Positions 1-34,110 of a DNA stretch of 34,888 nt are shown here, one piece after another. Numbering within the stretch: the stretch's first letter is position 1; every line of letters starts with the position of its first letter. Source of the DNA: Candidatus Omnitrophota bacterium (GTDB taxonomy: Bacteria; Ratteibacteria; UBA8468; B48-G9; DSTR01); NCBI GenBank assembly GCA_023818865.1, contig JAMWDF010000002.1:1-34888 (forward strand). The letters run 5' to 3'. A program made the translations under genes and the position numbers. A model generated the notes under the pieces. That model did not search any database. It saw only the letters and a program-made list of their open reading frames with translations, and was not told the origin of the DNA.

Positions 1-530
1 AAAATTCCGGCTTGCCCTCCCGGATGCTTCTGGCAAAGAGAACAGATACCGATGTGCCAGGCTTCATCCAGTCCTACATGCATAAACAGAGAAGGGAAGA
101 TGGCCGTCAGTTCTCCCAGGTAATCTTCTAGAAATTGCCTGGTTTTCTGGCTCGAGGGGCAGAAGGTGTCATGATACCGGGCTGGTGTGTCCCAGCGTCC
201 TTGAAGATTGGTAGCGCGCAATTCTGAAAGCGGTTGTAGTTCTGGGAAACTTAAGAAGTGTTCCGCATGAGCCAGTGTCTGAGTGGCAGGAATGATATCT
301 ATGTTTTTTCCAGAGGCATATTCCACTATCTCCCTCATCTCCCCGGCTGAGTAGCTGTCTTTCGCCAAAGGATAGGGGAAATTTGTCGTGCGCACCCGGC
401 CTCCCAGATAAAGGAGCACAGCGTTATAATTGCTTTCAGCGGCAAAACTGATAAAGTTACGGATAAACTCAGGTGTTTCCTTCTGGCGAGCCAGATCAAG
501 CTGAACCGACCGTAGCCGAAAGTTTGCCAT
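1..530 (-). CDS. GH20-like beta-N-acetylhexosaminidase catalytic-domain protein (N-terminus present, gene runs off the window start)
   Basis: Absent from the supplied track because there is no stop in the window. Manual minus-strand translation from ATG 530-528 gives MANFRLRSVQLDLARQKETPEFIRNFISFAAESNYNAVLLYLGG...DTFCPSSQKTRQFLEDYLGELTAIFPSLFMHVGLDEAWHIG. The block CP..TxxFL..v..E....FP....HvG.DE matches the GH20 active-site strand with the catalytic D-E pair. The start lies 15 nt downstream of the preceding gene's stop. No signal peptide. Confidence 0.7.
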   Translation of the reverse strand, partial: MANFRLRSVQLDLARQKETPEFIRNFISFAAESNYNAVLLYLGGRVRTTNFPYPLAKDSYSAGEMREIVEYASGKNIDIIPATQTLAHAEHFLSFPELQPLSELRATNLQGRWDTPARYHDTFCPSSQKTRQFLEDYLGELTAIFPSLFMHVGLDEAWHIGICSLCQKHPGGQAGI

Positions 531-545
531 GAAGTCTAGGCCTTG

Positions 546-3146
546 TTATTTTCCTGTCTCCGGTTCAAGATGAAGCAACACAACTTCTCTTGGAGCCAGA
601 GGAAGAGCAAATCTCTGGAAGAAACTCGCTTCTGCTTTTGTTTGACCATTAACCAGCCCCTGTTTCAAAACAAAACTATCACCTCCAACCAGAGTAACGC
701 TGTATCTTCCGGAAGGCAAATCTAACCCTATAACCGGAACGGCTGGCCTGGATTCCCAGTTAGCCAGATAAAGAATGAAGTTTCCGTCTTCCACCTTTCT
801 GATAAGAAATTCCACCCGGCCATCCGGTTCAAAACGGAGGCCGGTTTCTCCCCTCATTTTTTTAATCAGAGACAGAAGATTTTGCCGAACAGACTTTTTC
901 ATCCCTTGGCGGGCGAGATTAATAGGCTGATAAGCCACATTTTTGCTGTCTAGCAGTCTTTTCAGGAGTGGTTCTGGATAAGGGTTGCCGTACTGGTCGG
1001 TTGAACCTAACTGGTCAAGGATGAGCAGTCTTGACCCGGTTTCCACGGCTTTCTTGATGGCCGCGAAAGATTCTCTGGATAAGGAGTAAGCAAAGGGCAA
1101 GATTAGAAGTTTATATTTTCCAAGGTCATCCAGAGTATCTGGCCTTTCCGCGAAACGAACATCATAGGGAATTCCGTTTTCCAGAAGCAATCCCTCTACG
1201 CACTTGCCTGAAACCATTCCCCGAAATCGCTCGTAGTTTAACTCCCTGGTCCTGGTATCTGTATCTCTTTTCAGCACAGCGGTCAGTTCCTCTATCCTCG
1301 GAAGATAAAGCACTGTTCCCAAGCTGCTGTCACTTACTTGTTCTGATAGCAGTCCTTCCATTTTTACCTCCCACCAATCTTCGGAAGCCCGGGAGAGAAT
1401 CAGGCAGACAGTTGCTGGCGTGTGGCTTTTTCCAATGCCCCATTGTTCCAGCAATCTCATCCTCTGAAAACCAGCGATGACGGTTGGCCGCCATTCTTTC
1501 CAATCCAACATGTAATTTATCCGGTAATTGGAAATATAGCGAACGCCTTCCATCACGGTCGGTAAAATATATCCATACATCTTTATCGGATCGTGCGTTC
1601 CGTTATACGTAATATTAAGCCACTGAATCGCTGCTTCCAGTCGGTCCTTCCCAAAAGCGCCGGCAAATCTCCGACACAAAGCGACATACTTGCCGGTATC
1701 CACTGTCACACCGCCATAGACTGTTCCAGCGTCCACTATTTTGTCGCGTCCAAGAATGTCCAAGGCTACTCCATGTTCCAGTCGGGTGTTGTATAACTGG
1801 ACCATTGCCTGGTTGCCATTGCTGAAAATCTTCAGGTTCGGTTTTAATTTTTTTAGCTTAGCAGCCACATCGTTAAATAGGGCATATAATTGCTCATATT
1901 CAAACAGCTCCCACTTCCTGTACTTTTCATTGTCGCCTGGTTTCTCCGGCAGGGAGGGGTAGCCAAACATGTCTTTAAAAGCCCTGGTGCAGGCAGGACA
2001 GTTGGTTCTGGGCAGGTTGTGGCCTTTGAAATAGTATTCGTCAGGCATAAGGTAAAGGCCATCAACTCCCTGAGCCACTGCTTCTGAAAGGAGCCAAAGC
2101 CACTTATCATGGAAATCGCTTTCGCTAATTACACAGGGATATTTCTCTGGGTAATACTGCCTTATCTCTTCTCGGTCAACAAACCGGTCGCTTTGCTCAT
2201 AAGGATAATCCCATCTCCTCCAGGGCATAGGTGCTATCTTGTCTGCCTTTTGGAATGGTGTAATCCAGGCATGAGTGAAGAAGTAAACCTTAAATCCTTC
2301 TTTATGCAGGGCGTCCACATAAGCTTTCAGGACATTCTTCTCAGTATGCGGACCGAGGTTCGTTGGCCAAGGAATGCGGTTATCACAACAACTGGTTTCG
2401 GAAAAGATTCTTACGCCGGTGGCTTCAACCAGCTTTAAACTTTCCACCAGGGTCCGGAAAGACTTGAAAGAATTTAGGTCTTCAGGCAAGTTGGAACCAT
2501 TCTGTTGGAGCCCGGCATGCCAGAAGTCGGTGCAGATAATGTTTTCAATATTCCGCACCTGCATCTTTGGTGGTCTTACCGCTTGGCCAGGAGTAATTCT
2601 GTTTTGGGGCAGCACTTTTTTCCCTGGGTCCAGGTTAACCTTAGTGGTGGTGTAAATTTCTACCTCACGAAACTGCGGAAAGGGACAGCGGTATCCGGCG
2701 TTGCCGGTCAGCGCCAGAAATTCAAGGCCATATAATTTCTTGTTGATTGGGACGGTGAGCCAGCTTCCAGCGATAATTTCCTGGTTTCTCACTATTTTGA
2801 TGTCTGTTTCAAATTTTCCGTCCCCGTCAATATCACCTGAGAGCTTGAAATCTTTTGCGCCGATTTTCCCCTGAATAAACCGGAAGGCGGTCACCGATAA
2901 AGGTTTCGGGAAATGGATAGAAAAAGTTCCAGCCACTTCCGGGCCACCCTCGTATCTGGAAGCAGTGTTTGGGTTACCGTCACAGAGATTATAAACACAG
3001 GTCATATAAGGATTGGCTGAGACTTCAGCCCAGTGGTACCAATCCAATTTGTAACCGGCTGGCGGCTCAGTTTCCTGCCCCGTCACAGACCTGGTTAGCA
3101 GCAGCCCGAGGATACCCAGGCTACCTACTATTTTCCCCTTGATCAT
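546..3146 (-). CDS. Secreted discoidin/CBM-like domain plus uncharacterised glycoside-hydrolase-like module with a GH42-type C-terminal alpha/beta domain (divergent paralogue)
   Basis: Track ORF 546..3200. I moved the start to ATG 3146, which is preceded by AAGGAGG with 5-nt spacing and gives MIKGKIVGSLGILGLLLT (signal peptide). The N-terminal jelly-roll-like segment (FSIHFPKPLSVTAFRF...REVEIY) contains a DIDGDGKFE Ca-loop-like motif. The C-terminal LLILPFAYSLSRESFAAIKKAVETGSRLLILDQLGSTDQYGNPYPEPLL resembles the GH42 beta-galactosidase trimerisation domain. Homologous to ORFs 3161..5221 and 7331..11356. Confidence 0.6.
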   Translation of the reverse strand: MIKGKIVGSLGILGLLLTRSVTGQETEPPAGYKLDWYHWAEVSANPYMTCVYNLCDGNPNTASRYEGGPEVAGTFSIHFPKPLSVTAFRFIQGKIGAKDFKLSGDIDGDGKFETDIKIVRNQEIIAGSWLTVPINKKLYGLEFLALTGNAGYRCPFPQFREVEIYTTTKVNLDPGKKVLPQNRITPGQAVRPPKMQVRNIENIICTDFWHAGLQQNGSNLPEDLNSFKSFRTLVESLKLVEATGVRIFSETSCCDNRIPWPTNLGPHTEKNVLKAYVDALHKEGFKVYFFTHAWITPFQKADKIAPMPWRRWDYPYEQSDRFVDREEIRQYYPEKYPCVISESDFHDKWLWLLSEAVAQGVDGLYLMPDEYYFKGHNLPRTNCPACTRAFKDMFGYPSLPEKPGDNEKYRKWELFEYEQLYALFNDVAAKLKKLKPNLKIFSNGNQAMVQLYNTRLEHGVALDILGRDKIVDAGTVYGGVTVDTGKYVALCRRFAGAFGKDRLEAAIQWLNITYNGTHDPIKMYGYILPTVMEGVRYISNYRINYMLDWKEWRPTVIAGFQRMRLLEQWGIGKSHTPATVCLILSRASEDWWEVKMEGLLSEQVSDSSLGTVLYLPRIEELTAVLKRDTDTRTRELNYERFRGMVSGKCVEGLLLENGIPYDVRFAERPDTLDDLGKYKLLILPFAYSLSRESFAAIKKAVETGSRLLILDQLGSTDQYGNPYPEPLLKRLLDSKNVAYQPINLARQGMKKSVRQNLLSLIKKMRGETGLRFEPDGRVEFLIRKVEDGNFILYLANWESRPAVPVIGLDLPSGRYSVTLVGGDSFVLKQGLVNGQTKAEASFFQRFALPLAPREVVLLHLEPETGK

Positions 3147-3160
3147 TCCTCCCTCCTTTG

Positions 3161-5221
3161 TTATCTCGCCGGAAAGATATAAAGTATCTTTACTTCCCAA
3201 GGTCTAAGCCCGATCTTAAATCTTGCCAGTTTCTTCGCTTCAATCTCTTTCTGCCTGCCCAGGAGTGCCCTTTTTGCTCCTTCAATGTCTGTCTGAACGA
3301 GCCGAAATTTCCCCTGAGGTAACTTCAGCCCGGCCTGGACCGAGACAGCGCAGTCCATCCAGTTAATAAAGCACAAAAATTTTTCCTGGGCATTTTTTTC
3401 CAGGCAGGCAAATTCTACATCGTCTCGGTCAGGCTGAAAGTAGCAGGTTTTCTTATCTCCGAGGAGTTTGTCCACCAGTTTAGCCATTTTCGCCTGGACT
3501 TCTGGATAGTGCCCAATAACTGTCAGGTCTTCTCCAAAATAGAATATTTCCCTGGAGGCCACCAATTTCTTAAGCAGCGGTTCAGGGTAGGCAGTACCAT
3601 ACTCATCGGTTTCTCCCAGGCCACCCAGCACCAGAATCTTCTTACCGCCTTCAGCCGCCTGTCTTATAGCGGCCAGAGCCTTCTGGCTAACACTGTAAGC
3701 GAAAGGGATAGCTACCACCTGGAATTCATTGATATCCTGCCAGTCTTCCGGATGGTCAAGATACCTCATCTGGTATGGATACCCATGGGAAAGAAGGAAT
3801 TCATGGAGCCATTTTTCATAAACAAACCCCCTGGTCTGGTCAGCCGGATTTCCTTGAGGGTGGTATCTTTGTCTTACCTGCCACCAGTCTTCAGAAGACC
3901 GGGAACGTAGCACCAGTATCTGTTTCGGTATTTTTGCTTCTCTTATTCCCCAGGTCGCTAGAGTGTCCAGAATGGAAAAAGCTTTTTCAACATAGCGATT
4001 ATAACCGCCGTGAAAGATAAAGTTGTATCGCCAGAAGGAAACAATGCTGGCTCCATGCATTACCGCGCTGAGGACCGGACCGTAAATATAGACAGGTGTA
4101 CATTCCAGATAGTAACCTGGATGTTTCATTGGGTCACTTGCCCAAGGACAGTTGTGGGTGGTGATAACCTCGCGGGGGAAGTTGGCTGCTTTCGCTCGCT
4201 TGACATTAGCGGCTGTCTTCCAGTGGTTGAGGTTGGTGTTGTCCTCATAAGCGCTGGCGTGGTAATAATCCACCAGGGCGGTGTGTCCAATGATATCATC
4301 AGCCACTCCCCAGTCCTGCCTTGTGTTCCAGGCAGTATCCAGGACAGTCAACTGAGTGAAGGTTTTAATCCGGGGATTAGCCTTTTTCGCTTCTCTGGCT
4401 GCTCCAGCAATGTAGTCAGCAAATTCTTCATAGGCAAAAACAATCCATTTTCTGAAAGATTCTGTGTCTCCTGGTTCTTCAGGAAATGGTACCTGGTACC
4501 TTTTCTCAAAGGCTTCCCGGGTAACTCTGTCGGCTGATTTTGGATACCGGAGGGCAGTCCAGCATTGCTCGTCATAGCCACACCCAACACCATCAACTTC
4601 ACTTGCGGCCTGTTCCCTGACAAACCCTTCCAGGAATTCCCGGCTGTACCTGGAAATGTAAGGAGCCGGTTGGTTCCTGGTGGGGGTGAGCGGAAATTCC
4701 TCCAGTTCTTTCGGATACACGCACCGGTCCATGGTGAAAAATATAATTCCATTTTTCTTGAATACACCGGCTAACTCCTGGAGAATATTTTCTTCCATGG
4801 ACCATCTATCATACTGACTCGGCCAGAGAACATCAGCTTCGTAGGTCCCTTTTCCTCTGGGGCTCTCAATGTTTCTTGGTGGCCAAAGATTGACGTAATT
4901 GGCTCTGATTTTCTTCAGGTTAGCTATAAAATCAAGCAGCGGTTGATACTGGTCTAAAGTTGGTCTCTTCTCCTTTGGAATTTTCAGCCAGCCAAGGATG
5001 TTGAACATCCAGGGCTCAATGTGAAAACCTTTGCCGAGCGGCTGATCAGGAATCTGGATAAGAGACTTTCTCTCTTCTTCGGTTAACTCCGCAGCAGACC
5101 AAGAAATGGTTTCACTCTTCCCAGTTTCGGAGAAAAACAGAATAAAGAAACAGAAGGTTATAACTTTCCTCCAGCCCTGGTATTTCTGCCTCAAATTTTC
5201 CAGTGAGCCATTAGCCAACAT
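3161..5221 (-). CDS. Uncharacterised glycoside-hydrolase-like protein (TIM-barrel-like module plus GH42-type C-terminal domain), exported or membrane-anchored
   Basis: 686-aa ORF with ATG at 5221 and a GAGGA upstream. It has an N-terminal hydrophobic segment, VITFCFFILFFS. It aligns along nearly its whole length with the C-terminal ~640 aa of ORF 7331..11356. Example: GFHIEPWMFNILGWLKIPKEKRP...PRGKGTYEADVLWPSQYDRWS versus GFHIEPWMFNILGWLNTPKEKRP...PRGKGTYESDVLWPSQYDRWS. Both also carry ILVLRSRSSEDWWQVRQRY. Confidence 0.6.
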   Translation of the reverse strand: MLANGSLENLRQKYQGWRKVITFCFFILFFSETGKSETISWSAAELTEEERKSLIQIPDQPLGKGFHIEPWMFNILGWLKIPKEKRPTLDQYQPLLDFIANLKKIRANYVNLWPPRNIESPRGKGTYEADVLWPSQYDRWSMEENILQELAGVFKKNGIIFFTMDRCVYPKELEEFPLTPTRNQPAPYISRYSREFLEGFVREQAASEVDGVGCGYDEQCWTALRYPKSADRVTREAFEKRYQVPFPEEPGDTESFRKWIVFAYEEFADYIAGAAREAKKANPRIKTFTQLTVLDTAWNTRQDWGVADDIIGHTALVDYYHASAYEDNTNLNHWKTAANVKRAKAANFPREVITTHNCPWASDPMKHPGYYLECTPVYIYGPVLSAVMHGASIVSFWRYNFIFHGGYNRYVEKAFSILDTLATWGIREAKIPKQILVLRSRSSEDWWQVRQRYHPQGNPADQTRGFVYEKWLHEFLLSHGYPYQMRYLDHPEDWQDINEFQVVAIPFAYSVSQKALAAIRQAAEGGKKILVLGGLGETDEYGTAYPEPLLKKLVASREIFYFGEDLTVIGHYPEVQAKMAKLVDKLLGDKKTCYFQPDRDDVEFACLEKNAQEKFLCFINWMDCAVSVQAGLKLPQGKFRLVQTDIEGAKRALLGRQKEIEAKKLARFKIGLRPWEVKILYIFPAR

Positions 5222-5399
5222 CTGCAGAAGGTCCTCAAGAGATCAAGAACCCAGACCGTAGGTCAAAGCAAGTAAGTCAGTCGAGACATAGCCTTCAGTC
5301 GTATTTGGGATTTTCCCTACTCAAGCCGCCCATACCTCAATGACGCCAGGGCCTACATTTTGATTTTCTGCCTGGGGCTCATCTTTGGATAACACCCTT

Positions 5400-7334
5400 T
5401 TAGCATCTTCCCTTTATCTTGCTCACTCCAGGCGCCTGATACCTTTTCCCGTTCAGGAGATAAGCCCCGGAGGAGAAATCTACTTCTACTTCAGTTCCAT
5501 CGCTAAAGACTGTCTGCTGAACCTGGCCAGCTTCTTCCAGCATTTTCCAGTCAATCATGGCTTCAAAACCTACTTTTTCCGAGAGCCCTTGAAGAGGCTT
5601 CAAGTCACGGACAAACTCTGCTGAAGACTTCCGGTAAGGGGAAAAATTGCACTCAAAGCCCTCGGGTCGCACTGAAGGGATGCCTCCCCAGAGCATCCCC
5701 CAGAGAAAAGCATCTTTTGGGTTTTTTTGGTCTATCCATGAAGGAACCACCAGGCAGTCATGCCAGACAAGAGCGTATAAGGGAAAAGGAATACCCAGGG
5801 GTTTATTTTCAAGCTTCTTCCGCAGATCAAAGGGACAGTTTCCTGGATGGACAGTATGGCAGAAGTCAAGAACAGGTATTGCCCAGTCGGCCCCGCCTTC
5901 AGAACTGGTGACCCAGCCAAATTTCTGGCAGAAGGCAAAGATTTCCGTCCAGGCTTTCCTGGTTTGACTTCTGGCGGAAAGGTGTTTCTGGTCGTAGCAT
6001 TCCCGCAGGTGGCTGAAAGTGAAACAATCAAGGTAGGTGGCAGAGGGACGGACTCTTTTTTGAATTTCAGACAGGTTGCGCCGGACAAACTTCATCGTTT
6101 TCTGCGGGCAAAGCCACTGCTGTCTTCCGCCAAGCCATTCATTATTTTCCGGCCTCACCCCGCTTAAATCAAGCACAGTTACCTCCGGGCCAAAGGATTT
6201 GCTGTCAGCATAAATGTCCACATAATTGTCATGAAGCAGAAAAAGATGACCCGAAGATTGAATAACCCTGGCCATCTTCACCAGACCATTCCAGCCGCCT
6301 ATTTTAGGATCCGGAGGAAGAATATCTGGATGGAGACAGTCATAACCCTTTCTTCCCCAGCCGTCAACATGGACTACCACCTTTTCTAAGCCAGCCTCTT
6401 TCTCCAGCTGCTTGAACCTTCTCAACCCTTCGGAAAAAGACATTCGCTGCCAGACATTTTTTTTCCTGAACCGGCCAAACCAAGATTCATGCCAGATATT
6501 GATAACGATGGCTCCGGGCAACTTAGCCACATTTGGTCTTTCTCTGGCTTTTTCTTTCAAGGTGAGAGCCAGCCCTTTACCGGCGGCATGTTGGCGATAA
6601 ACTTTGGCGATTTCTGGCAGGCTGATTTTGTTAAAAAATTTGTACTTAATGCTTCTTGGGTATCTGAAATTGCCCAGGCTGGCTAACCACCAAGGATGGA
6701 CAGTATGGCCATATTCTGGCTCGGTAACTACCCGAAAAGCGATGTCATCAGTAGTTTCTGGCAGGGCGACCATTGCCTCTCCAGAATCCGTTATCTGCGC
6801 CCACCAGGGCATCACGAAACCCATTCCCGCATAGGCAGGAAAAGTATGGGCAAGTTCTACCGGGAAATTCTTATCAAGGAGACACCCCTGTCCGTAAGGA
6901 AGAACGAGTTTGCCTCTAACCTTTTTCGGAAAAAGGAAGCCTCGGGGATAAGCACTGTCAATAAAAGAAGCTTCTCCTCGACCATTGCGGGTGCTTACAA
7001 TAATTTTCAAGGTGTCATAATCCAGATGAAAAGCCACTTCCACTGCAAAATCAAGATAACTCCAAACATTTGGTCTGTAAGGCCAACAGGAAAGCGTTAC
7101 CTTCCGAAAACAATTGTTTCCTTCCCAATTAATCTGCTGAGCCGAACTAAAAGGCAATCCTTCCCGAGGACCAGAATGCCCCTGAATGCCGATATCTCCT
7201 GGCCCGGTGGGCTGCATCAGCCAGCCCAAACCTGTTCTCAGGTCCAGTACATTGACTGAAAGGTTTCTTTGGTCTATCTCCACCTCAAGAAGTTGGTTTC
7301 TTATCTTGATTTTCCTGTTTTTCCATGGTCTCAT
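5400..7334 (-). CDS. Putative cytoplasmic glycoside hydrolase, GH101/GH129-like (DUF5696-type) (beta/alpha)8 protein
   Basis: 644-aa ORF. The ATG at 7334 overlaps the upstream stop (7331-7333) as ATGA. No signal peptide. The segment VHVDGWGRKGYDCLHPDILPPDPKIGGWNGLVKMARVIQSSGHLFLLHDNYVDIY resembles the DGW...G(H/Y)D..(H/Y)PD...P....GG...L......G....G.H.N block I recall from GH101/GH129 enzymes. The family assignment is from memory only. Confidence 0.45.
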   Translation of the reverse strand: MRPWKNRKIKIRNQLLEVEIDQRNLSVNVLDLRTGLGWLMQPTGPGDIGIQGHSGPREGLPFSSAQQINWEGNNCFRKVTLSCWPYRPNVWSYLDFAVEVAFHLDYDTLKIIVSTRNGRGEASFIDSAYPRGFLFPKKVRGKLVLPYGQGCLLDKNFPVELAHTFPAYAGMGFVMPWWAQITDSGEAMVALPETTDDIAFRVVTEPEYGHTVHPWWLASLGNFRYPRSIKYKFFNKISLPEIAKVYRQHAAGKGLALTLKEKARERPNVAKLPGAIVINIWHESWFGRFRKKNVWQRMSFSEGLRRFKQLEKEAGLEKVVVHVDGWGRKGYDCLHPDILPPDPKIGGWNGLVKMARVIQSSGHLFLLHDNYVDIYADSKSFGPEVTVLDLSGVRPENNEWLGGRQQWLCPQKTMKFVRRNLSEIQKRVRPSATYLDCFTFSHLRECYDQKHLSARSQTRKAWTEIFAFCQKFGWVTSSEGGADWAIPVLDFCHTVHPGNCPFDLRKKLENKPLGIPFPLYALVWHDCLVVPSWIDQKNPKDAFLWGMLWGGIPSVRPEGFECNFSPYRKSSAEFVRDLKPLQGLSEKVGFEAMIDWKMLEEAGQVQQTVFSDGTEVEVDFSSGAYLLNGKRYQAPGVSKIKGRC

Positions 7335-10300
7335 TGTGTTCCCTTAACGTAAAGGATTTTCATTTCCCAGGGTTCAAGCGAAACGAGAAATTGCTGAAGG
7401 TCACTGGACGCGATCTTTGTCTCTGGGCCGATGACCGCTTTTCGTACCCCATCCAGATCCCGAAGAAAAGCCTCATACGTTCCCGGTGGCAGGTTTAAAC
7501 CTGCGGTTACCTTTATCGCTCGGTCTGTCCAGTTAAGAAGGAGGACAAACTTTTCCCGGTCTCCCTTTTCGATTATTGCTGTTTCCACATCATTGCCCTC
7601 ACTGTTGAAGAAAAATAATTTTCTCGGCCCCAGCAATTTATCAATTTCCTTCTGAAAATTTGCCAGAAAATCAGGGTTATGCCCAAGAGAAACTATGTCT
7701 TCTTTTACTAGCAGTGCTTTGCCGGAAGAGACCATCCCTGAGAAAAGTGGAACAGGATAAAAATTTCCCCACTCATCGGTTTCTCCTTGCCTGTCCAGTA
7801 GCAAGATTTTTGTCCCGGCTTCGGCTGCCTTTTCAATTTTCTGGAAGGCTTCCCGGCTGATACTGTAAGGGAAGGGGAGTATCACCAAAGGATAGGCAGA
7901 AATTTCTGAGGCGAAATCTTCCGGATGCTCAAGGTAATAAATCCGGAATGGGTAGCCGTGGCTCAAAAGAAATTCTAATAGCCATTTCTCATAAATAAAT
8001 CCTCTGGTCTGGTCAGCTGGATTACCTTCTGGGTTGTACCGCTGTCGCACCTGCCACCAGTCTTCAGACGCTCTTGACTTCAGCACCAAAATTTGTCTGG
8101 GAATTCTGGCTTCTTTTGCTCCCCAGACAGCCAAAGTATCAAGCAGAGAGTAAGCCTGCTCAACGTACTTTTCGTAACCCCCGTAAAATATGAAGTTGTA
8201 TCTCCAGTAAAGCGGCAGACGACCGCCATGCATAAAGGAAACTACCGGTGGTCCATACATCCAGGCAGGAGTGGTATCAAGGTAGTAACCAGGGTATTTC
8301 ACCGGGTCATTCGCCCAGGGACAATTGTGGAGAGAGGCAGGGGCTCGGCCGCGGTTAGCCCCCAGCATTCTAAGAGTATTGGCGGCTGACACGAAGTGGT
8401 TCAAATTACCGTAATTTTGATAGCAGTAAGCTCGGAAAAAATCTATGTCAGCCATGTGTCCGACGATATCCTCGGCAATGTTTAGGTCAATCCTTCCGTT
8501 CCACAAATTTCCTAGGCAAACATGCACAGGCGTTTTGGTAAACACTTCTGGATTGGCTGCTTTTGCCGCGGCGGCAGCTTCAGCTAAATAAGAGGCGAAC
8601 TGTTCGTAACCGAAGATAATCCATTTTCTAAAAGCTTCAGTGTCTTCCATTTTGTCCGGCACTGGAAGGTTGTATTTCTTCTGGAAGGCTTCCCGGGTGG
8701 CTTCATCCACATTCGCCGGATTGCGTAACCCTCCCATCTGTTCGTCATAGCCGATTCCCACTCCATTGACTCCACTTTTCACCTGTTCCAAAACAAAACC
8801 CTTCAAGAATTCCCGGGTGTGTCTGGAAATGTAAGGGGCTGGTTTATCCCGAGTGTCGCTGGGTGGAAATTCTTCTAATTTTTTTGGGTAGACACACCGG
8901 TCCATAGTAAAAAGTTTGAGGCCACTGGCCTGGAAAACTTCCGCAATCTCCTTCAAGGCATTTTCGGTTAGAGACCATCGGTCATACTGACTAGGCCAGA
9001 GAACATCAGATTCGTATGTTCCTTTTCCCCTGGGCACCTGGATATTTCTGGGCGGCCACATATTCACAACATTGGCGTGATATTTCTTGATGTTCGTCAC
9101 AAAATTAAGGAAAGGCTCGTATTCTCTCAGAGGGGGTCGTTTTTCTTTTGGGGTATTGAGCCAACCCAAAATGTTGAACATCCAAGGTTCAATATGAAAC
9201 CCTTTTAGAACTTCCTCTTTTGGCTCCGGTGTCCTGAGGGTTATCGGTTCGCCGCCTTTGATTTCAGGGATGTTTTTCGGAGTCGGGGCAGCCGGTTTCC
9301 AAGTAGTCTGTTTCTTGGGAACGAGGATCTGGACGTCATAATAGCGGGGGGGGCCAAAAGTGGCCAGGAGAATTCCGGATACATTCTGAACTGATGGCTG
9401 GAAGGTGTTTTTTATCCAGGTCCTTGCCTTCCAGACACCACCGGGGTTGGTAATTTTTCCTTCCAAATCAGCCCGCAATAGTTTTTCGCAAACCCCATCA
9501 CCATTGGTATCAACGAGAATTGCCCAGGGACCAGAAGGTACCGCCCAGTTAATAGCCACAATCTCCTGGGGAGTATCAAAGTGGAAATAATATCTTGCAG
9601 TTTTTACTGGAGTTCCTTTTTCTGGTTCAGGCATGGTGCGCAGTTTTTCATCAGGGTCAACAAGAAGTCGCACCATCGTCGTGTAGGGAATAGTCCTAAT
9701 CTTGGCCGCAGGGGCGATATTCGCCAGTTCCAGACCTTTGGGTAGTTCAGGTCCAATCTGGTTATGGATGAGGGTCACCACACCAGGCAATGCCTCTGGT
9801 GCTACTGCCGGTTTAATCTCAGGAAACTGGTCTTTTGTCAGCGGCCCTTGAAGTTTCAAGCCAACATCATGGATTTCATAGTGGGCATACCTGGTGTCTC
9901 TAACTACCCCCAGCCAGAGCTCCCCACCTTCTTTGGTTTCCAATATTCCCTGGGATAGCTTGAATGTTCCGTTAACCTCCAGCGGTGCCTTGGTTATTGT
10001 GAGAGTACTGGCTGGTTTGTCCACTGTGAGGGAGGGAAAGATACTGGAGTAAGAATCTTTGGCTACTGTCCCGCCGGATTCAATTGTGGCTTTTTGAGGA
10101 CCGGTAAAGACAATCTGGGCTTTCTTCCCGAAATTCAGGCGAAAAGAATCTGTCCTTGGTTTTTCCGGCACAGGGGGAAGAAAGCAGGACCCAGTTATGG
10201 TAAGAACATTTTCCCCGAGATTGAAACTACCTACCTTGAAAAGGACGTCTCCCTGGATAGTCAGATTGCCTTCTTGGGTGACAGAATAAGCATAGTTTCC

Positions 10301-11356
10301 GGTATCAACAGTAAGCCCGGTAAAGATGGCTTCTTTTGGTTTCAGCCTCGCATGATAGCAACCGGAAGAAAAAACCAACCTGGGTCGGCCAATAATTTCG
10401 CCCTCATTAATCAAACCACGGCAATGGCTGACAATTCCTGACCCGCCAAAGGTAATGACAGAAACAGCGCTGGCGTCCAGGATGGCATCTTTCTCAATCT
10501 TTAACCCAGCACAGGCAAGATTACCTTTCAATCTGACGGTAGTGCCAGAACTTACACCCAGAGGTGGTAAAATCGCTTTGTTCCCGGTCACCTCCACCAG
10601 ATGGGTTTCTTTTCCCAAAAAAATTACCCAGGATTCTTCTTTTTCCTTTCCTCCACCACAAACCGCAGAGTCATCACTAAAAAGATTGCCGTTAAGGAAA
10701 ACCTGGCCTTCCATAGCCAGACTGGCAGAACTTTCCTTCCCTCCTGAAAAAGCAAGGTCCCCCTGAATGGTCAGGGTAACGCCCCGGGGAACAAAAAGGC
10801 CATGCCCGTTAAGAATTAGGTTGCCGGTAAGAGTTAGACTGTCAGTCAGAGTCACCCTGTAACTGTAAGAACCGGGAGGTAGAGTCAGAGAAGAAAAACT
10901 TGCTCCCCCAGCTTTAATCGCTGCATGATAACAGTATCCAGCAAGCACCAAAGCCGGTGTACCGACAATTTTCCCAAGATTGGTAAGCCCGCCTGGCCCA
11001 ACAGTGATAATAGAGTTTCCGTGAGAAGCATCAAGTGTTCCTTCAACCAAGATACCTTTTTTCTCTGAAGGTTGAAGATTTGTAAGTTTTAAATTATGTC
11101 CGGCCAGAGTGAGCCTGGCATTTTTTTCAATGACTAAAGAACCATCAACCGCTGCATCAGCAGTCAGCACAGGGTAGTTGGCCACGCCTCCAGAGATGAG
11201 AACATCTTTTCCGTCCCGGGCTACCGGCGCCTTTCCTGTGGACCAGTTTTCGCCAGAAAACCAGTCGCTGGTTTTTCCTGTCCACTGATTGGTGCCGGCA
11301 GTCAGCAAGGCGGAAAAGAGGAAACACCAAAGTCCCTGAAAGAGAAAGTATCTCAT
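7331..11356 (-). CDS. Large secreted multidomain protein: autotransporter-type beta-strand/beta-helix N-terminal region, discoidin/CBM-like domain and glycoside-hydrolase-like module
   Basis: 1341-aa ORF with GGAGGACAAGAA-ATG at 11356 and signal peptide MRYFLFQGLWCFLFSALLTAG. The N-terminus NQWTGKTSDWFSGENWSTGKAPVARDGKDVLISGG is typical of autotransporter-associated beta-strand repeat proteins. There are two internal ~110-130-aa repeats. The mid domain has a DTNGDGVCE loop. The C-terminal ~640 aa are paralogous to ORF 3161..5221. Confidence 0.65.
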   Translation of the reverse strand: MRYFLFQGLWCFLFSALLTAGTNQWTGKTSDWFSGENWSTGKAPVARDGKDVLISGGVANYPVLTADAAVDGSLVIEKNARLTLAGHNLKLTNLQPSEKKGILVEGTLDASHGNSIITVGPGGLTNLGKIVGTPALVLAGYCYHAAIKAGGASFSSLTLPPGSYSYRVTLTDSLTLTGNLILNGHGLFVPRGVTLTIQGDLAFSGGKESSASLAMEGQVFLNGNLFSDDSAVCGGGKEKEESWVIFLGKETHLVEVTGNKAILPPLGVSSGTTVRLKGNLACAGLKIEKDAILDASAVSVITFGGSGIVSHCRGLINEGEIIGRPRLVFSSGCYHARLKPKEAIFTGLTVDTGNYAYSVTQEGNLTIQGDVLFKVGSFNLGENVLTITGSCFLPPVPEKPRTDSFRLNFGKKAQIVFTGPQKATIESGGTVAKDSYSSIFPSLTVDKPASTLTITKAPLEVNGTFKLSQGILETKEGGELWLGVVRDTRYAHYEIHDVGLKLQGPLTKDQFPEIKPAVAPEALPGVVTLIHNQIGPELPKGLELANIAPAAKIRTIPYTTMVRLLVDPDEKLRTMPEPEKGTPVKTARYYFHFDTPQEIVAINWAVPSGPWAILVDTNGDGVCEKLLRADLEGKITNPGGVWKARTWIKNTFQPSVQNVSGILLATFGPPRYYDVQILVPKKQTTWKPAAPTPKNIPEIKGGEPITLRTPEPKEEVLKGFHIEPWMFNILGWLNTPKEKRPPLREYEPFLNFVTNIKKYHANVVNMWPPRNIQVPRGKGTYESDVLWPSQYDRWSLTENALKEIAEVFQASGLKLFTMDRCVYPKKLEEFPPSDTRDKPAPYISRHTREFLKGFVLEQVKSGVNGVGIGYDEQMGGLRNPANVDEATREAFQKKYNLPVPDKMEDTEAFRKWIIFGYEQFASYLAEAAAAAKAANPEVFTKTPVHVCLGNLWNGRIDLNIAEDIVGHMADIDFFRAYCYQNYGNLNHFVSAANTLRMLGANRGRAPASLHNCPWANDPVKYPGYYLDTTPAWMYGPPVVSFMHGGRLPLYWRYNFIFYGGYEKYVEQAYSLLDTLAVWGAKEARIPRQILVLKSRASEDWWQVRQRYNPEGNPADQTRGFIYEKWLLEFLLSHGYPFRIYYLEHPEDFASEISAYPLVILPFPYSISREAFQKIEKAAEAGTKILLLDRQGETDEWGNFYPVPLFSGMVSSGKALLVKEDIVSLGHNPDFLANFQKEIDKLLGPRKLFFFNSEGNDVETAIIEKGDREKFVLLLNWTDRAIKVTAGLNLPPGTYEAFLRDLDGVRKAVIGPETKIASSDLQQFLVSLEPWEMKILYVKGTQ
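10150..11060 (-). repeat. Internal tandem duplication at protein level within the 1341-aa ORF (two beta-helix-like modules)
   Basis: Module A is LDASHGNSIITVGPGGLTNLGKIVGTPALVLAGYCYHAAIKAGGASFSSLTLPPGSYSYRVTLTDSLTLTGNLIL...VTLTIQGDLAF. Module B is LDASAVSVITFGGSGIVSHCRGLINEGEIIGRPRLVFSSGCYHARLKPKEAIFTGLTVDTGNYAYSVTQEGNLTIQGDVLF...VLTITGSCF. Shared landmarks are LDAS, I.G.P.LV, CYHA, Y.Y.VT and LTI.G. Boundaries are approximate. Confidence 0.5.
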
Positions 11357-11412
11357 TTCTTGTCCTCCGATTGAAAGAAAAAGCTATTGTTGCTGATGGT
11401 TTTTCCTAATGG

Positions 11413-12216
11413 TTAATACACCGCGTCAGCCGGCGGCGCTCCGCCTGTTTGACTGGAATAATCATCAAAGGAGCGAGACTGCTGATACATACCCCAGTAG
11501 TGATTCTTAAGAGAAGTCTTCGCCTCCCCAGGGACAATACCAACATGGCCATCTACAAATAAAGCGTTACACTGACCGGCGTGCCGATAACCAAGCTGAC
11601 TCAACTCGTATAGTATCCCGTACCAGGTACTGCTGGCTGCTTCTACAATGAGGATTCTCTCAGAAGGATGGTCAACCCGGGAGCGGAAAACACCGTTGCA
11701 GGTATTGTAACAAGCGGTATTCATTCGGTTCCAGCCGTAACTAGTTCTTGGCGAAGCCCCGCCATAAGGCGGGTAACTACCCAGAGGCTGAGCGGCTCGC
11801 CAGGCACAGGCATAGTCACTCATTCCAGCCCAGTAAGGGTCATCAAAGGGTGGAACCTCGGGGAAAAGGACTCCCCAGGAAGGCAAGGCGGCAGCCATAG
11901 AAGGACACCGGAGCATATCCGGAGTTTTCCTGCTGCCTTCTACATAGCCCATATAAGGCAGACAAACGGTAATCCAGTTACCTTTGCCCTTGCCGGGATA
12001 ATCAGATGTTCCCTGGTAAGGCAATCGGTCATTCCAGTCGCTACAATACATAGCAACCACCTGGCCAATCTGCTTCAAATTGTTCATACAGGAGGCGCCT
12101 TCTGCTTTTTGCCTAGCTTTGCGCAGGGCAGGAAGAAGTAATGCGGCCAGGATAGCGATGATTGCCACCACAACCAGCAACTCAATCAAAGTAAAACCAG
12201 AAATTTTTCTTCTCAT
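11413..12216 (-). CDS. Prepilin-type N-terminal cleavage/methylation domain protein, H-X9-DG (DUF1559-like) pseudopilin
   Basis: GGGAGGAAAGAC-ATG start. The sequence [31 protein letters not shown] has the class III signal with G-F cleavage site and Glu+5. It carries the conserved head C.NNLKQIG. The C-terminal [14 protein letters not shown] is a canonical H-X9-DG. Confidence 0.85.
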
Positions 12217-12230
12217 GTCTTTCCTCCCTG

Positions 12231-13118
12231 TTACGGCATATAAATAAGGGGATTATGCAACCGGCTGATCCAGCCGGTCAATCCTTCTTGTCCGTTGGTG
12301 GCTGGTAGAACATAGAGGGTGTTGCCTTCCTGAACCACTTTCTGAGAAGGTATCCAGCGAACCGCACCGCTGACATAAAGGACGTTGATGCCATCTGTGC
12401 CATGGTTGTTCTCTTGCGTCAAGGTCAGACCAAGAGCGGTTGGGCTAGCTACCTGCTTGTAAACATCTACCGGCGAGGTACCATTATCCCAGCCTTCAAG
12501 ATACCAGTTTGGCGAACCAGCCAGGTTAGCCCGGCCAAAAGTCGCCGCAGGTCGCTGTCGGTCAGCCGCTAGGACCGAATCGTCCTGGGTAGAGCAATTC
12601 CAGCCAGTAGTAAAGTTGTAGGCATGTTCCCGGATGCTATAACTCACCCAGTCATAGGTAGAGATATCGCCGAGTTTACCGTAAGCGTAAGAGCATTCAC
12701 ACAAGATGGCCGGACCTTCTGAGCGGGTGGAGAGATAACCGCGATTGCGCACTCTAACAAGAGCTCGCATATCCATCTTCTGGCTGGGACAGAGAAAGAC
12801 TTCTGGATTCTTGATGTAGCTTACACCACCCAGACTGCCGGTAGAATCTTTACCCAGGAGTTTGTTAAAAGGACGCAGCGTCAAGATATACCAGGAAGCG
12901 GTGGCTGGCCCTCGGTAATCAGGGAACCAGCCGTCATAGTCTTCCGCATACATCCGGAAAGCCAGGCCGATCTGTTTTAGATTGTTCATACAGAGTGCTC
13001 GCCTAGCCTTTTCCCTGGCCTTGCCCAGGACTGGAAGTAACATCGCCCCCAAAATGGCAATGATGGCAATGACTACCAACAGTTCTATCAAAGTGAACCC
13101 TTTTTTCTTTCTCTTCAT
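12231..13118 (-). CDS. Prepilin-type N-terminal cleavage/methylation domain protein, degenerate H-X9-DG-like pseudopilin
   Basis: Track ORF 12231..13142. I moved the start to ATG 13118 (TTGGAGGATTGG-ATG), which removes the overlap with the upstream stop at 13132. The protein begins [31 protein letters not shown] and has CMNNLKQIG. The C-terminal [17 protein letters not shown] has Ser in place of the motif Asp and one extra residue. Confidence 0.8.
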
Positions 13119-13131
13119 CCAATCCTCCAAG

Positions 13132-13971
13132 TTAAAAGACACTTTCTACATTGGGTCCGCGTAGGAAAATCTGGTCATCAAAAGCATCAGTCGGTACCGT
13201 GTCAGTCATGTAATAAGGTCGGTCTCCAGGATAAACAGTAACATTGTAAGCGCAATTAGGTAATGCCGCAGCCGGCACATAACGGTAACCGTCGGAAGCC
13301 CGGTAAGAAGGAACCCAGCGAGCGTCCCCATGAATGTAAAGAACATTTATACCCACCCGACCATGGCTCATCATCCCGGTTAACCGCAGCCGGTAGTAAC
13401 CGCCATACCCGTAAGATTCACGGTTCTGAGTACCTCCGCCGCTATCATCTCCGGTGCTTTTCTTGTCGGCCACTAAAGCATAGTTAGACGATAGGAGAGT
13501 ACCAGCGGCCAACGTGGCTGGGATGGCGGGCTTCTTGGTATTCAGATTGAGAGCATAAGCATAAGAGCAGTGTTCGTACTTCAGATAACCGATGTCAGAT
13601 TTACTCTCATACCGGGAACTGGGACAAATAAAAATTTCTGGGTTGGTTATGTACCTTGGCCCCTCAAAATCTGCATCTGGCGCTGCTGCCGGCCCTCCCG
13701 GTCCAGAAACAATCTGGCCTACCAACAACATCAAGGAACGGGAACACTTGTTCATACCATTGGCATCCCTGGCCAGAGGAAACCAGCCGTCATAGTCTTG
13801 AGCATAGAGATAGAGGGCTACTCCAATCTGTTTCAGGTTAGAAATACAGGCGGCTCTTTTTGCTTGTTCCTGGGCCCTGACCAGCGCCGGAAGCAGCATG
13901 GCAGCTAGGACTGCGATAATAGCCACCACCACCAGTAGTTCAATCAACGTAAACCCCTCAGTTTTCTCCAT
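13132..13971 (-). CDS. Prepilin-type N-terminal cleavage/methylation domain protein, degenerate H-X9-DG-like pseudopilin
   Basis: Track ORF 13132..13980 begins at a GTG that abuts the SD. ATG 13971 sits 8 nt after AAGGAGG. The protein begins [30 protein letters not shown] and has CISNLKQIG. The C-terminal [17 protein letters not shown] has the DG replaced by HG. Confidence 0.8.
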
Positions 13972-14001
13972 ATTTCTCACCTCCTTGGTTTTCTGACAGT
14001 A

Positions 14002-15024
14002 TTATTCAAAGCCTAAAAGTTTTTCAATGCCCAGGTTGACTACTTCCTGGATAATGCTTTCCCGACCAACCACTCCAGTTTCAATTCTTACCCCTTCTCT
14101 GGGGAACTGTCGGTCATTCACTGACTTTCTCACTTTTTCCAGGAAGGTTTCTCCTACCTTGGCCAAAGCGCCGCCCAGAATAATCATTTCCGGGTCAAAA
14201 AGGTGAATCAGCCGGTTTAGTCCGGTAATGAAACTTGGGGAGGGGTCGCCCTCAGGAGTACGCACCTCTTCCGGGACAATGCCCAGGTTTTCTCCAGCGC
14301 ATCCCTGATAGCCACGATAGATTGAACCGTTTATCAATATTCCAAATCCGATTCCGCTGCTGGTTTTTATAACATAAATTGCCTGGCTTACACCCCGGGC
14401 TATTCCTATCCGGGATTCAGCCAACATCATCATGTTAGCATCGTTTTCCACAATGACAGGTACGCCAAAACGCTTTTCCAGCTCCTTTTTTACCGGGAAT
14501 TTCTGATTTTTTTCCATCCAGAGATATTCGCCAGCCAAACTCACCAGTCCGGAAAGGCTCACGGCTATCCCGAGAAGGTTATTTTGGCCATAAGTTTGCA
14601 ATAGATGATTAATCAAATCTCCGAGTAAATCGCAGGAGAAATTAGTTTTGGAAAGAGAAGAACGATGTTCCATCAGAACTTTGGCGTTTAAATCAGCCAC
14701 AATGCCGTAGGATTCCAGACCGACATCTACTCCTGCGACTACCCCAATCTGGCTCTGAAATTCTACCAGAAATGGATTGCGGCCAACATCGGAATGCGAG
14801 GCCTTCTTCAATCTTACCAGTTTTTTCTCATAAAGCTCCTGGACAATGCTGACTACAGTGGGGTGGCTGAGCCCAGTCCGTTTGGCAATCTCTGGTCTGG
14901 AAATGGGAGAAAATTCTTTGATGGTCAACAGTACCCGGGCATAATTCTGGCGGCGGTGATAATGAAATGAATTGCTGCCTAGCTGTGGCCTGGATAAACT
15001 GAAAACGAGTTCTTCATTTTTCAT
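14002..15024 (-). CDS. ROK-family transcriptional regulator (short form lacking the Zn-binding Cys motif)
   Basis: The N-terminal winged HTH reads ISRPEIAKRTGLSHPTVVSIVQELYEKKLV. ROK sugar-kinase-fold blocks are present: GVDVG, VIVENDANMMMLAE, GIGFGILINGSIYRGYQGCAGENLG and DPEMIILGG. The usual GH....C.CG..GC.E segment after AGE is missing. The protein is 340 aa, against roughly 400 aa for NagC/Mlc-type proteins. Confidence 0.8.
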   Translation of the reverse strand: MKNEELVFSLSRPQLGSNSFHYHRRQNYARVLLTIKEFSPISRPEIAKRTGLSHPTVVSIVQELYEKKLVRLKKASHSDVGRNPFLVEFQSQIGVVAGVDVGLESYGIVADLNAKVLMEHRSSLSKTNFSCDLLGDLINHLLQTYGQNNLLGIAVSLSGLVSLAGEYLWMEKNQKFPVKKELEKRFGVPVIVENDANMMMLAESRIGIARGVSQAIYVIKTSSGIGFGILINGSIYRGYQGCAGENLGIVPEEVRTPEGDPSPSFITGLNRLIHLFDPEMIILGGALAKVGETFLEKVRKSVNDRQFPREGVRIETGVVGRESIIQEVVNLGIEKLLGFE

Positions 15025-15032
15025 TTTATGGT

Positions 15033-15061
15033 ATTTTACCAGCCAGGAGTAGTTCTGTCAA
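15033..15061 (-). promoter_or_regulatory. Sigma70-type promoter for the ROK/pseudopilin/GH operon (TTGACA-17-TAAAAT with a TGg extended -10); leaderless or near-leaderless
   Basis: The minus strand reads CAC-TTGACA-GAACTACTCCTGGCTGG-TAAAAT-ACCATAAA-ATG. The -35 is at 15056-15061 and the -10 at 15033-15038. Only 8 nt separate the -10 from the ROK ATG (15024), and there is no SD. Confidence 0.55.
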
Positions 15062-15078
15062 GTGTTTTTAAAATACCT

Positions 15079-34057: not shown

Positions 34058-34081
34058 TTTTCTCCTTGTTCCCTTCTCGTT

Positions 34082-34110
34082 ATTATGCTTCCAGGATTTT
34101 CGCCTGTCAA
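34082..34110 (-). promoter_or_regulatory. Sigma70-type promoter for the GH-A hydrolase/patatin operon (TTGACA-17-CATAAT)
   Basis: The minus strand reads TTGACA-GGCGAAAATCCTGGAAG-CATAAT, followed by about 24 nt containing AAGGAG before ATG 34057. Confidence 0.5.

Follow-up and report, generated by a model that had tools for sequence, protein, structure and literature searches.

DUF1559 pseudopilins, a sugar-sensing regulator and a candidate family of exported glycosidases in a transporter-free locus of Candidatus Omnitrophota

What can be the function of a bacterial locus where a sugar-sensing regulator, pilin-like proteins, large exported proteins and cytoplasmic glycosidases are encoded side by side, and where no transporter is recognised? 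The question is raised by a stretch of DNA of 34,888 bp from a Candidatus Omnitrophota bacterium (GenBank assembly GCA_023818865.1, contig JAMWDF010000002.1), called here the window, which is the entire contig and also the extent covered by the negative results given for the locus. Based on the map of open reading frames (ORFs) and their translations, nine genes are present on the minus strand within positions 1-15024. An original prediction, made from the sequence alone, viewed them as a unit resembling a polysaccharide utilisation locus (PUL), possibly for a substrate containing N-acetylhexosamine (HexNAc). In the reading favoured here, which is given about an even chance of being right, positions ~546-15076, the core of the locus, form a single sugar-responsive operon with which an Omnitrophota cell attacks an extracellular glycan. 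That the core is one unit is argued by its tight gaps and by a promoter and a palindrome kept in three lineages, as well as by the recurrence of the gene set with a swapped regulator and unrelated flanks and by its loss as a block in one relative. Its catabolic flavour comes from the sugar-sensing regulators heading every copy and from the regulators of GntR/LacI-periplasmic-binding-protein (PBP) type, which are the commonest neighbours of the exported enzymes at large.

In such an operon, the regulator, of the ROK family, would act as a repressor on the palindrome beside its own promoter and would come off when a sugar released by breakdown appears. A prepilin peptidase would cleave the three pseudopilin-like DUF1559 proteins, which would then be incorporated into a machine of the type II secretion or type IV pilus kind, and both peptidase and machine would have to be encoded elsewhere in the genome. 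As such, the pseudopilins may constitute a locus-specific part of this machine, either bringing the enzymes across the outer membrane or holding enzyme or polymer at the cell surface. Outside the cell, the polymer would be cleaved by two or three exported enzymes sharing a module of 630 aa, designated module X; the fragments would be imported by an unlinked transporter and trimmed in the cytoplasm by a relative of the alpha-N-acetylgalactosaminidases of glycoside hydrolase (GH) family 129 and by the neighbouring GH20-like enzyme. The likeliest substrate would be a HexNAc-containing polymer, e.g., a bacterial exopolysaccharide (EPS) or an envelope glycan. Some elements were already noted before, namely pseudopilins in polysaccharide clusters of the Planctomycetota-Verrucomicrobiota-Chlamydiota (PVC) group and import-poor loci of carbohydrate-active enzymes (CAZymes) in Omnitrophota. 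The GH129 and GH20 members are likewise ordinary, if distant, representatives of their families. What is new is (i) the module X family, present in three copies, (ii) the fixed trio of DUF1559 proteins in a sugar-regulated operon, and (iii) a transporter-free layout kept across lineages. The conserved block gives leads for two unstudied protein families.

The regulated block and its conservation

At the head of the block lies the gene of the ROK regulator (14002-15024, minus strand; 340 aa), for which Pfam recognises both the ROK family (E-value 4e-27) and an N-terminal winged helix of MarR type (MarR_2, E-value 1e-7), the best NCBIfam match being NagC (E-value 1e-22, far under the cut-off). 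Ahead of it, the sigma-70-type promoter already pointed out in the original prediction (TTGACA-17-TAAAAT, with a TG extension; 15033-15061, minus strand) scores highest (11/12 matches) among the 17 promoter-like sites that a motif scan lists over 17 kb. As 16.4 such sites are expected from shuffled sequence, this match by itself proves nothing. It is made credible by conservation, since the ROK orthologues of the related loci L049/L050 and L051 are preceded by the same -35 element, spacing and -10 element (TTGACA-17-TAAAAT in L049, TTGACA-N-TATAAT in L051) and by the palindrome GTATTTT-N-AAAA(T/C)AC, promoter and palindrome being thus kept in three lineages while the spacer sequence diverged. 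In the window, this near-perfect palindrome (15062-15076, minus strand), which reads GTATTTTAAAAACAC on the coding strand, has a single match and abuts the -35 hexamer, and it is fused to TTGACA in L049, L050 and L051 too; its sequence and position make it a candidate operator bound by the ROK regulator. The end of the -10 element is separated from the ATG of the regulator by 8 nt in the window (15024-15061), 9 nt in L049 (L049:8056-8092) and 5 nt in L051 (L051:8925-8963), from which it follows that the regulator mRNA would be leaderless or nearly so in all three lineages, with no room for a Shine-Dalgarno sequence.

Downstream of the regulator come the genes for three pseudopilins, a 1341-aa exported protein, a 644-aa GH129-family enzyme, a 686-aa and an 884-aa exported protein, and a GH20-like protein. 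When start codons are picked by orthologue length, the successive intergenic gaps amount to 30, 13, 14, 56, -4, 178, 14 and 15 nt, in agreement with the nine minus-strand genes first described as separated by 0-56 nt bar one gap of 178 nt, and the genes of the core would be co-transcribed. The common strand means little in itself, since all genes within 1-22239 are carried by the minus strand. Neither promoter nor terminator is listed by the scan within the 178-nt gap, located ahead of the 686-aa gene, and the window contains no Rfam family and no tRNA. Judging from N-terminal hydrophobicity, six proteins of the locus are exported, three with Sec-type signals and three with prepilin leaders, instead of the four signal peptides initially counted; the ROK regulator, the 644-aa protein and the GH20-like protein have no signal.

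The core, i.e., a regulator, two to three DUF1559 pseudopilins, the 1341-aa protein, the GH129 enzyme and the 884-aa-type protein, is encountered in at least five lineages, the window and four others, and synteny in related genomes thereby bears out its conservation as a unit. The related loci L005/L049/L050 comprise ROK, three pseudopilins, the 1341-aa protein, GH129, a decayed ORF of 384 aa, an 869-aa protein and an extra module X gene, and L051 comprises ROK, two pseudopilins, the 1341-aa protein, GH129 and an 864-aa protein. In the two other lineages, a regulator of GntR/PBP type stands in place of ROK and is accompanied by three pseudopilins, a 1343-aa protein, an 869-aa protein and GH129 in L010 (Omnitrophota), and by three pseudopilins, a 1349-aa protein, an 874-aa protein and GH129 in L047/L048. 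Orthologues of the 1341-aa protein measure 1341-1349 aa (L005, L010, L047, L049 and L051), and those of the 884-aa protein, present in every copy of the unit, 864-874 aa. The flanks are unrelated among lineages (Hyp genes, GHL10/Memo, heparinase-like, UvrA), the unit of L010 being inserted between hydrogenase-maturation genes and an alpha/beta hydrolase gene.

The limits of the block are further informed by a metagenomic relative, L053, which is collinear with the window over the genes for DXS (74%), a radical-SAM activase (63%) and a family 1 glycosyltransferase (GT1). From inside the palindrome, its sequence then passes straight to a remnant made of the final 116 codons of the 884-aa gene (codon ~768) and on to the GH20-like gene (76%), which is here the next gene after GT1 (L053:3780-4200). 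This junction indicates that the segment corresponding to ~897-15063 of the window was deleted there in one piece. As L053 lost the core yet kept the GH20-like gene, the block is dispensable, and the GH20-like gene, counted within the unit by the original prediction, belongs outside the core.

Module X and the cytoplasmic glycosidases

The three large proteins of the block are all exported, share module X and are paralogues of one undescribed family. The 1341-aa protein (7331-11356, minus strand) is composed of a signal peptide, an N-terminal region of ~700 aa and module X (DNA 7334-9223); the 686-aa protein (3161-5221, minus strand), as judged from paralogy and an AlphaFold2 (AF2) model, of a signal peptide or anchor and module X; and the 884-aa protein (546-3200, minus strand; 866 aa from its probable start, ATG 3146) of a signal peptide, an N-terminal domain of ~190 aa and a divergent module X. 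Over the module, identity to the 686-aa protein is 56% for the 1341-aa protein and 29% for the 884-aa protein (E-value 5e-59). The 686-aa gene stems from a lineage-specific duplication of the 3' half of the 1341-aa gene: positions 3744-4865 and 7917-9038 are 72% identical in nucleotides with a constant offset of 4173, and the window has no meaningful DNA repeats apart from those of this duplication. In relatives, the 686-aa gene is missing or decayed to the 384-aa ORF, which has no family match. Upstream of the module, the N-terminal 711 residues of the 1341-aa protein give no Pfam match at E<=10 beyond noise. The same holds for the N-terminal domain of the 884-aa protein, which gives no PDB match either, so that the carbohydrate-binding module once supposed there finds no support; this domain is weakly similar to the segment preceding module X in the 1341-aa protein (E-value 3e-4).

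By sequence, module X corresponds to no family of Pfam or NCBIfam, bar sub-threshold matches to the GH42M trimerisation domain (E-value 4e-3), and nothing relevant is retrieved from PDB sequences by single-sequence or profile search. The GH-like character previously ascribed to the three large proteins thus has no CAZy-type family behind it, and a glycosidase reading is drawn from a predicted fold resembling GH42/GH164. A search of 1.84 billion proteins at E<=1e-3 yields 317 clusters (50% identity) for the family, whose named members are all labelled "hypothetical". For the 686-aa protein, the AF2 model (predicted local distance difference test, pLDDT, 86.9; predicted template modelling score, pTM, 0.87) is matched by Foldseek over all three domains to GH164, GH42, GH167 and the beta-1,2-glucosyltransferase of Ignavibacterium album (E-value ~1e-17, TM-score ~0.6, ~10% identity), with a probability of 1.0 and TM-scores of 0.58-0.64 to 6t5o, 7omi, 5xb7 and 5e9a. 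With the GH164 beta-mannosidase Bs164 (6t5o) and GH42 (5xb7), module X would have in common a (beta/alpha)8 barrel, a GH42M-like alpha/beta domain, a C-terminal beta-sandwich and a Glu after strand 4, but it differs from the GH42/GH164/GH35-type members of clan GH-A in having Asp-Glu for Asn-Glu after strand 4 and Asn/Gln for the nucleophile Glu after strand 7.

Among 78 full-length members of the family (median identity 30%), the pair Asp217-Glu218, placed directly after barrel strand 4 by DSSP on the AF2 model and not by residue-level superposition, is invariant (78/78), and D309 is conserved in 77, E203 in 75 and R398 in 70 of them. In GH18, GH20, GH84 and GH123, an Asp-Glu or Asp-Asp pair is located on strand 4 and no nucleophile is supplied by the enzyme, and an Asp-Glu pattern of this kind is typical of families using substrate-assisted catalysis on N-acetylhexosaminides. 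By analogy, the residue pattern and the gene company of module X, i.e., its GH129 and GH20-like neighbours, would fit substrate-assisted catalysis, which is a lead. A kinship with GH20 or DUF4838 through the Asp-Glu motif was considered and rejected, hhalign having found no profile similarity, and the idea of substrate-assisted catalysis is therefore left with the residue pattern and the gene company as its basis. Taken with the modelled fold, these residues suggest that module X is catalytically active. In this compact family, of which no member has been described, the model is confident and the candidate catalytic pair stands out, and one positive assay could be enough to establish a new GH family; an activity, if found, could in addition reveal which glycan is degraded by these widespread, anaerobic and uncultured bacteria.

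Among representative genomes of 185,579 species, module X genes are present at 43 loci, mostly in Planctomycetota, Lentisphaerota/Victivallales, Omnitrophota and Armatimonadota, with a few metagenome-assembled genomes (MAGs) of proteobacteria. Over 126 ORFs flanking module X genes and searched with Pfam, the commonest neighbours are GntR/LacI-PBP regulators (6-8), followed by M42 peptidases (4). These M42 genes, from a family including "endoglucanase" annotations of CelM type, adjoin module X in unrelated lineages (L002:3316-4371 and the P0012 contig among others). Two contexts of module X can be distinguished, namely a regulated, catabolic-looking unit and clusters for polysaccharide synthesis. 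Both may be embraced by a single reading, where the substrate would be a bacterial EPS processed by its producers and attacked by scavengers or predators by means of module X.

The 644-aa cytoplasmic protein (5400-7334, minus strand) is clearly a GH129 relative from its sequence. It aligns with NagBb of Bifidobacterium bifidum (PDB 5wzn) at an E-value of 1.3e-70 over 485 residues (143-627 of the query to 130-628), and the residues aligned with Trp398, Asp435 and Glu478 are all three identical, Asp435 and Glu478 being the catalytic residues of NagBb. Trp398 is the residue stacking on N-acetylgalactosamine (GalNAc) in NagBb (PMC8106489). Pfam assigns the protein to DUF5696 (E-value 1e-14) and GH129 (E-value 1e-6; 28.1 bits for a cut-off of 25.6), and the calls of GH129-like and GH20-like enzymes in the original prediction were correct. 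Like NagBb, it lacks a signal peptide; unlike NagBb, it comes from an environmental Omnitrophota and not from a gut mucin degrader, and has other partner genes. It also matches ZgGH129 (5opq; E-value 3e-11), and since GH129-like enzymes including 5opq act on 3,6-anhydro-D-galactose, the wider family has specificities other than alpha-GalNAc.

Of the GH20-like gene, which flanks the conserved core, only the first 176 codons are present (1-530, minus strand), the remainder being cut by the contig end. The fragment matches PF00728 (E-value 3.5e-14; 53.4 bits for a cut-off of 22.3) and displays, in the motif MHVGLDEAW (HVGLDE), the H-x-G-x-D-E catalytic pair. Its full-length orthologue in L054, of ~615 aa and 76% identical, matches GH20 chains of the PDB at an E-value of 1.5e-9. 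On these sequence grounds, the protein is a distant GH20, its part beyond the contig end being known solely from the L054 orthologue. A homologue search with the fragment returned two tiny contigs only, and the lineage is very rare, with three matches among 5.8 billion clusters. An exported DUF4838 protein is encoded after the L054 copy (L054:1846-3039) and a CE4 polysaccharide deacetylase after the L055 copy (L055:3467-5155), both consistent with N-acetylhexosamine chemistry. A transporter encoded just past the window start would have made the locus conventional; in L054, the nearest relative whose sequence extends past the GH20-like gene, and in that relative only, none follows this gene.

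Pseudopilins and known layouts for polysaccharide use

The three pseudopilin-like proteins, located at 13132-13980 (protein 1; probable start ATG 13971), 12231-13142 (protein 2; probable start ATG 13118) and 11413-12216 (protein 3, of 267 aa), all on the minus strand, are 267-303 aa long and carry a leader G/FTLIE (the stroke marking the cleavage site) followed by a DUF1559 head. All three score above the cut-offs for N_methyl (PF07963) and TIGR02532 and reach 29-44 bits for PF07596 (SBP_bac_10/DUF1559; cut-off 23.3), and protein 3 ends with an H-X9-DG motif (TIGR04294; 21.5 bits for a cut-off of 19). Their matches to GspG (E-values 1e-8 to 1e-10) are restricted to the first ~55 residues and are under the cut-off. 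In the alignment of DUF1559 proteins, H247, G251, N253 and W263 are conserved. The AF2 model of protein 2 (pLDDT 87.4) predicts a long pilin-type helix at the N-terminus (residues 18-68) joined to a globular head, and it matches no PDB fold at E<=0.001 (best E-value 2.2). A solute-binding fold, as the Pfam name SBP_bac_10 would have it, was discarded, since none of the 50 matches listed is a solute-binding protein. The orthologues are one-to-one, with identities for proteins 1, 2 and 3 of 85, 70 and 76% in L005 and of 45, 58 and 35% in L010. Single PVC genomes hold dozens of DUF1559 proteins, and in P. limnophila, with 68 genes, two are essential and the function is unknown (PMC10632474). The literature provides nothing on DUF5696 or H-X9-DG and mentions DUF1559 in passing only. 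In this regard, a small operon tying exactly three DUF1559 proteins to defined exported enzymes and to a sugar sensor is a tractable system for DUF1559 function.

As to import, the absence of a recognisable transporter, already noticed in the locus, extends to its relatives. Pfam and NCBIfam find no transporter family in the scanned window proteins, the ORFs for DXS, HisG, AccA, CysS and a patatin-like protein (>=180 aa) having been judged from their translations with no family search. Neither a SusC/D pair nor an ABC sugar transporter is present inside or next to the unit in any of its five copies, and the top 25 families among the 126 neighbours of module X include no transporter. In L051, an ABC_tran and BPD_transp_1 pair is located ~4 kb upstream, with a cyclase gene, a transposase gene and an opposite-strand ORF of 208 aa in between. 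Because transporters are repeatedly absent beside these units, pipelines demanding one for calling a polysaccharide locus will miss them.

A search for the parts that define a Sus-type PUL, an ABC-type PUL and a type II secretion operon found them absent in each case, and the locus is none of the three. With the Sus-type PULs of Bacteroidota and the ABC-type PULs of Gram-positive bacteria, it has in common the co-localisation, and probable co-regulation, of a regulator, exported depolymerases and exo-glycosidases for one glycan. It differs from the former in having no match to a TonB receptor or SusD (window proteins scanned; flanks of L010 and L047-L051), from the latter in having no solute-binding protein with two permeases and no ABC or major facilitator superfamily transporter, and from both in that pseudopilins come straight after the regulator. 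In the loose, dbCAN-type sense (a CAZyme plus a transcription factor), the locus does count as a CAZyme gene cluster, through GH129, GH20 and ROK. Regarding type II secretion, the Klebsiella pul regulon and other such operons are co-regulated with the secreted glycanase, and the locus resembles Gsp/Pul systems in encoding proteins with prepilin leaders beside exported polysaccharide-degrading enzymes under a sugar-responsive regulator; it differs in lacking GspD, GspE, GspF and GspO. Compared with GspG, its pseudopilins are ~2 times larger, have DUF1559/H-X9-DG heads and are kept as a set of three distinct paralogues.

Precedents exist in Verrucomicrobiota and Omnitrophota, so that the layout first presented as unlike the Sus and ABC paradigms does lack SusC/D and ABC parts and yet is not without antecedent. 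In Verruconatronum alginivorum (Verrucomicrobiota), a pulG-like pseudopilin, with 67 paralogues, is encoded inside an alginate cluster; a pseudopilin, not identified as the one of the cluster, is induced by alginate, and export of the lyases by type II secretion is proposed (PMC13274419). In Omnitrophota, secretion or pilus genes are reported beside extracellular CAZymes without import clusters (bioRxiv 10.64898/2026.06.07.730766). A broader proposal, tentative and rather doubtful as a whole, is that sets of DUF1559 pseudopilins, which make up the largest uncharacterised family of paralogues in PVC-type bacteria, are cargo- or substrate-specific adaptors, each set coupling its own group of exported glycan-degrading enzymes to a type II/type IV pilus-like machine common to all, that the unit would represent a third layout of polysaccharide use beside Sus and ABC, and that module X would be a new GH family acting on HexNAc polymers by substrate-assisted catalysis.

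Alternative readings and remaining genes of the contig

Several observations weigh against an operon attacking an extracellular glycan. First, there is no importer on the 35-kb contig, though the cytoplasmic GH129 and GH20 enzymes need one, and no secretin, ATPase, platform protein or prepilin peptidase is found in the 34.9-kb contig nor in the fetched flanks of the related units. Second, the DUF1559 head, having no structural relative, gives no direct clue to binding of sugar or protein, and DUF1559 proteins are so numerous in these phyla, as in the planctomycete mentioned above (PMC10632474), that some adjacency is chance. Third, the position after strand 7 of module X is Asn in 45 and Gln in 21 of the 78 members and is never Asp or Glu; lacking a strand-7 carboxylate, the mechanism of module X, and even its activity as a hydrolase, is in question. 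Fourth, synthesis genes recur near module X, namely GT4 (4), Wzy_C (3), WecG (2), GDP-mannose dehydratase (3) and exosortase (2), and in L001 (1-23183) a module X gene is placed inside a synthesis cluster with GT4, GT2, two Wzy_C, an acyltransferase_3, WecG and a WecA-type protein. In L001 also, an 879-aa protein without family match is encoded two genes downstream of the 686-aa homologue.

This last context is at the root of an alternative that appears unlikely, where the block would remodel or release the cell's own EPS or envelope glycan rather than feed on a foreign one. PslG, PelA, BcsZ and Sph3/Ega3 are EPS-processing hydrolases encoded in synthesis operons, Sph3 and Ega3 being triosephosphate isomerase (TIM)-barrel enzymes acting on a GalNAc-rich polymer. 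Some module X genes resemble them in their location inside synthesis clusters (L001 and proteobacterial loci), and the closest homologue of the 686-aa protein on a long contig (P0002, 56% identity) is tightly packed in such a cluster; added to this are the recurring synthesis genes listed above and the GT1 gene lying directly upstream of the window promoter. However, these hydrolases have no kinship with module X in sequence or among top-ranking folds, and the unit of the window is devoid of synthesis genes. None of the five Omnitrophota-type copies contains a glycosyltransferase, flippase or polymerase gene, whereas the first gene of each encodes a sugar-sensing regulator of catabolic type (ROK or GntR/PBP), and each includes GH129, a cytoplasmic exo-glycosidase for which a part in exporting a polymer is not obvious. 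As for the GT1 gene, it is kept in L053 despite the deletion of the block, and gene and block are thus uncoupled.

A predatory or epibiotic mode of life, in which enzymes and pseudopilins of the Omnitrophota cell would target glycans in the envelope or capsule of a host or prey cell, nutrition via a dedicated importer being secondary, is considered rather improbable. It is in line with the absence of import genes in or beside the unit copies, with the HexNAc-directed GH129 and GH20-like enzymes, which fit cell-surface glycans, and with the predation or host dependence proposed for Omnitrophota having secretion/pilus genes and extracellular glycosidases with a weak carbohydrate-import signal (bioRxiv 10.64898/2026.06.07.730766, 10.1101/2023.11.21.568195). 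Nonetheless, module X with pseudopilin neighbours also occurs in free-living saccharolytic Lentisphaerota and Planctomycetota, no lysis or effector domain was detected, and a sugar-sensing repressor together with cytoplasmic exo-glycosidases points to the use of the released sugar, as in the operon favoured here.

Alternatively, the pseudopilins could be bystanders beside an ordinary CAZyme cluster, owing to the sheer number of DUF1559 paralogues, which seems improbable to a marked degree. The family is indeed very large, with >6,657 homologues of pseudopilin 2 at E<=1e-10 besides the 68 paralogues of P. limnophila (PMC10632474), only 15 of the 43 module X loci have a DUF1559 gene within 3 kb, and the enzymes are encoded without pseudopilins in L003 and the P0012 contig. 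Against chance stands an about tenfold gradient over the 43 genome loci, with 27 DUF1559 genes in 240 kb at 1-5 kb from module X for 1 in 92.5 kb at 7-10 kb. Moreover, lineages whose proteins are only 35-60% identical, and whose flanks and regulator differ, retain orthologous pseudopilins (three, or two in L051) in an unchanged order after the regulator and ahead of the 1341-aa gene, and the intergenic distances (13-56 nt, or overlaps) favour co-transcription. Finally, that module X would be no glycoside hydrolase, i.e., a binding or scaffold protein, or a transglycosylase, lyase or esterase on a GH42-like frame, is very improbable, as the absence of a sequence-level family, the ~10% identity and TM-score of ~0.6 to the best structures, the Asn/Gln at the nucleophile position of the clan and the lack of profile similarity to GH20 or DUF4838, which have the Asp-Glu motif, are set against a conserved active site (Asp-Glu invariant at the canonical acid/base site after strand 4, plus D309, E203 and R398), the several glycosidase families generally known to use a strand-4 Asp-Glu or Asp-Asp without enzyme nucleophile, and a genomic company of glycosidases and sugar regulators.

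Elsewhere on the contig, two further genes for carbohydrate-related proteins were evaluated as members of the locus and set aside, namely a BNR/sialidase-like gene (29198-30295, minus strand) and a GH39-like gene (32693-34114, minus strand), as they are 14-18 kb away, on the far side of housekeeping genes, and are not met again close to the unit in relatives. The former had been taken as a hint to the substrate of the locus, but ~14 kb of housekeeping genes lie in between and nothing links the two. The BNR/sialidase-like protein has no obvious signal peptide, and the GH39-like protein is exported. Between 22797 and 27491 on the plus strand, a short glycyl radical enzyme of 717 aa, under every NCBIfam equivalog cut-off, is encoded after an amidohydrolase_2 gene and a gene for a 558-aa protein without family; the sole radical-SAM activase of the contig (16430-17029, minus strand) is 8 kb away from it, on the other strand, and adjoins DXS. 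Lastly, at 27592-29081 (plus strand), a gene for a CcrM-like adenine methyltransferase overlaps an ORF of 190 aa without family match, the two probably forming a small restriction-modification pair.

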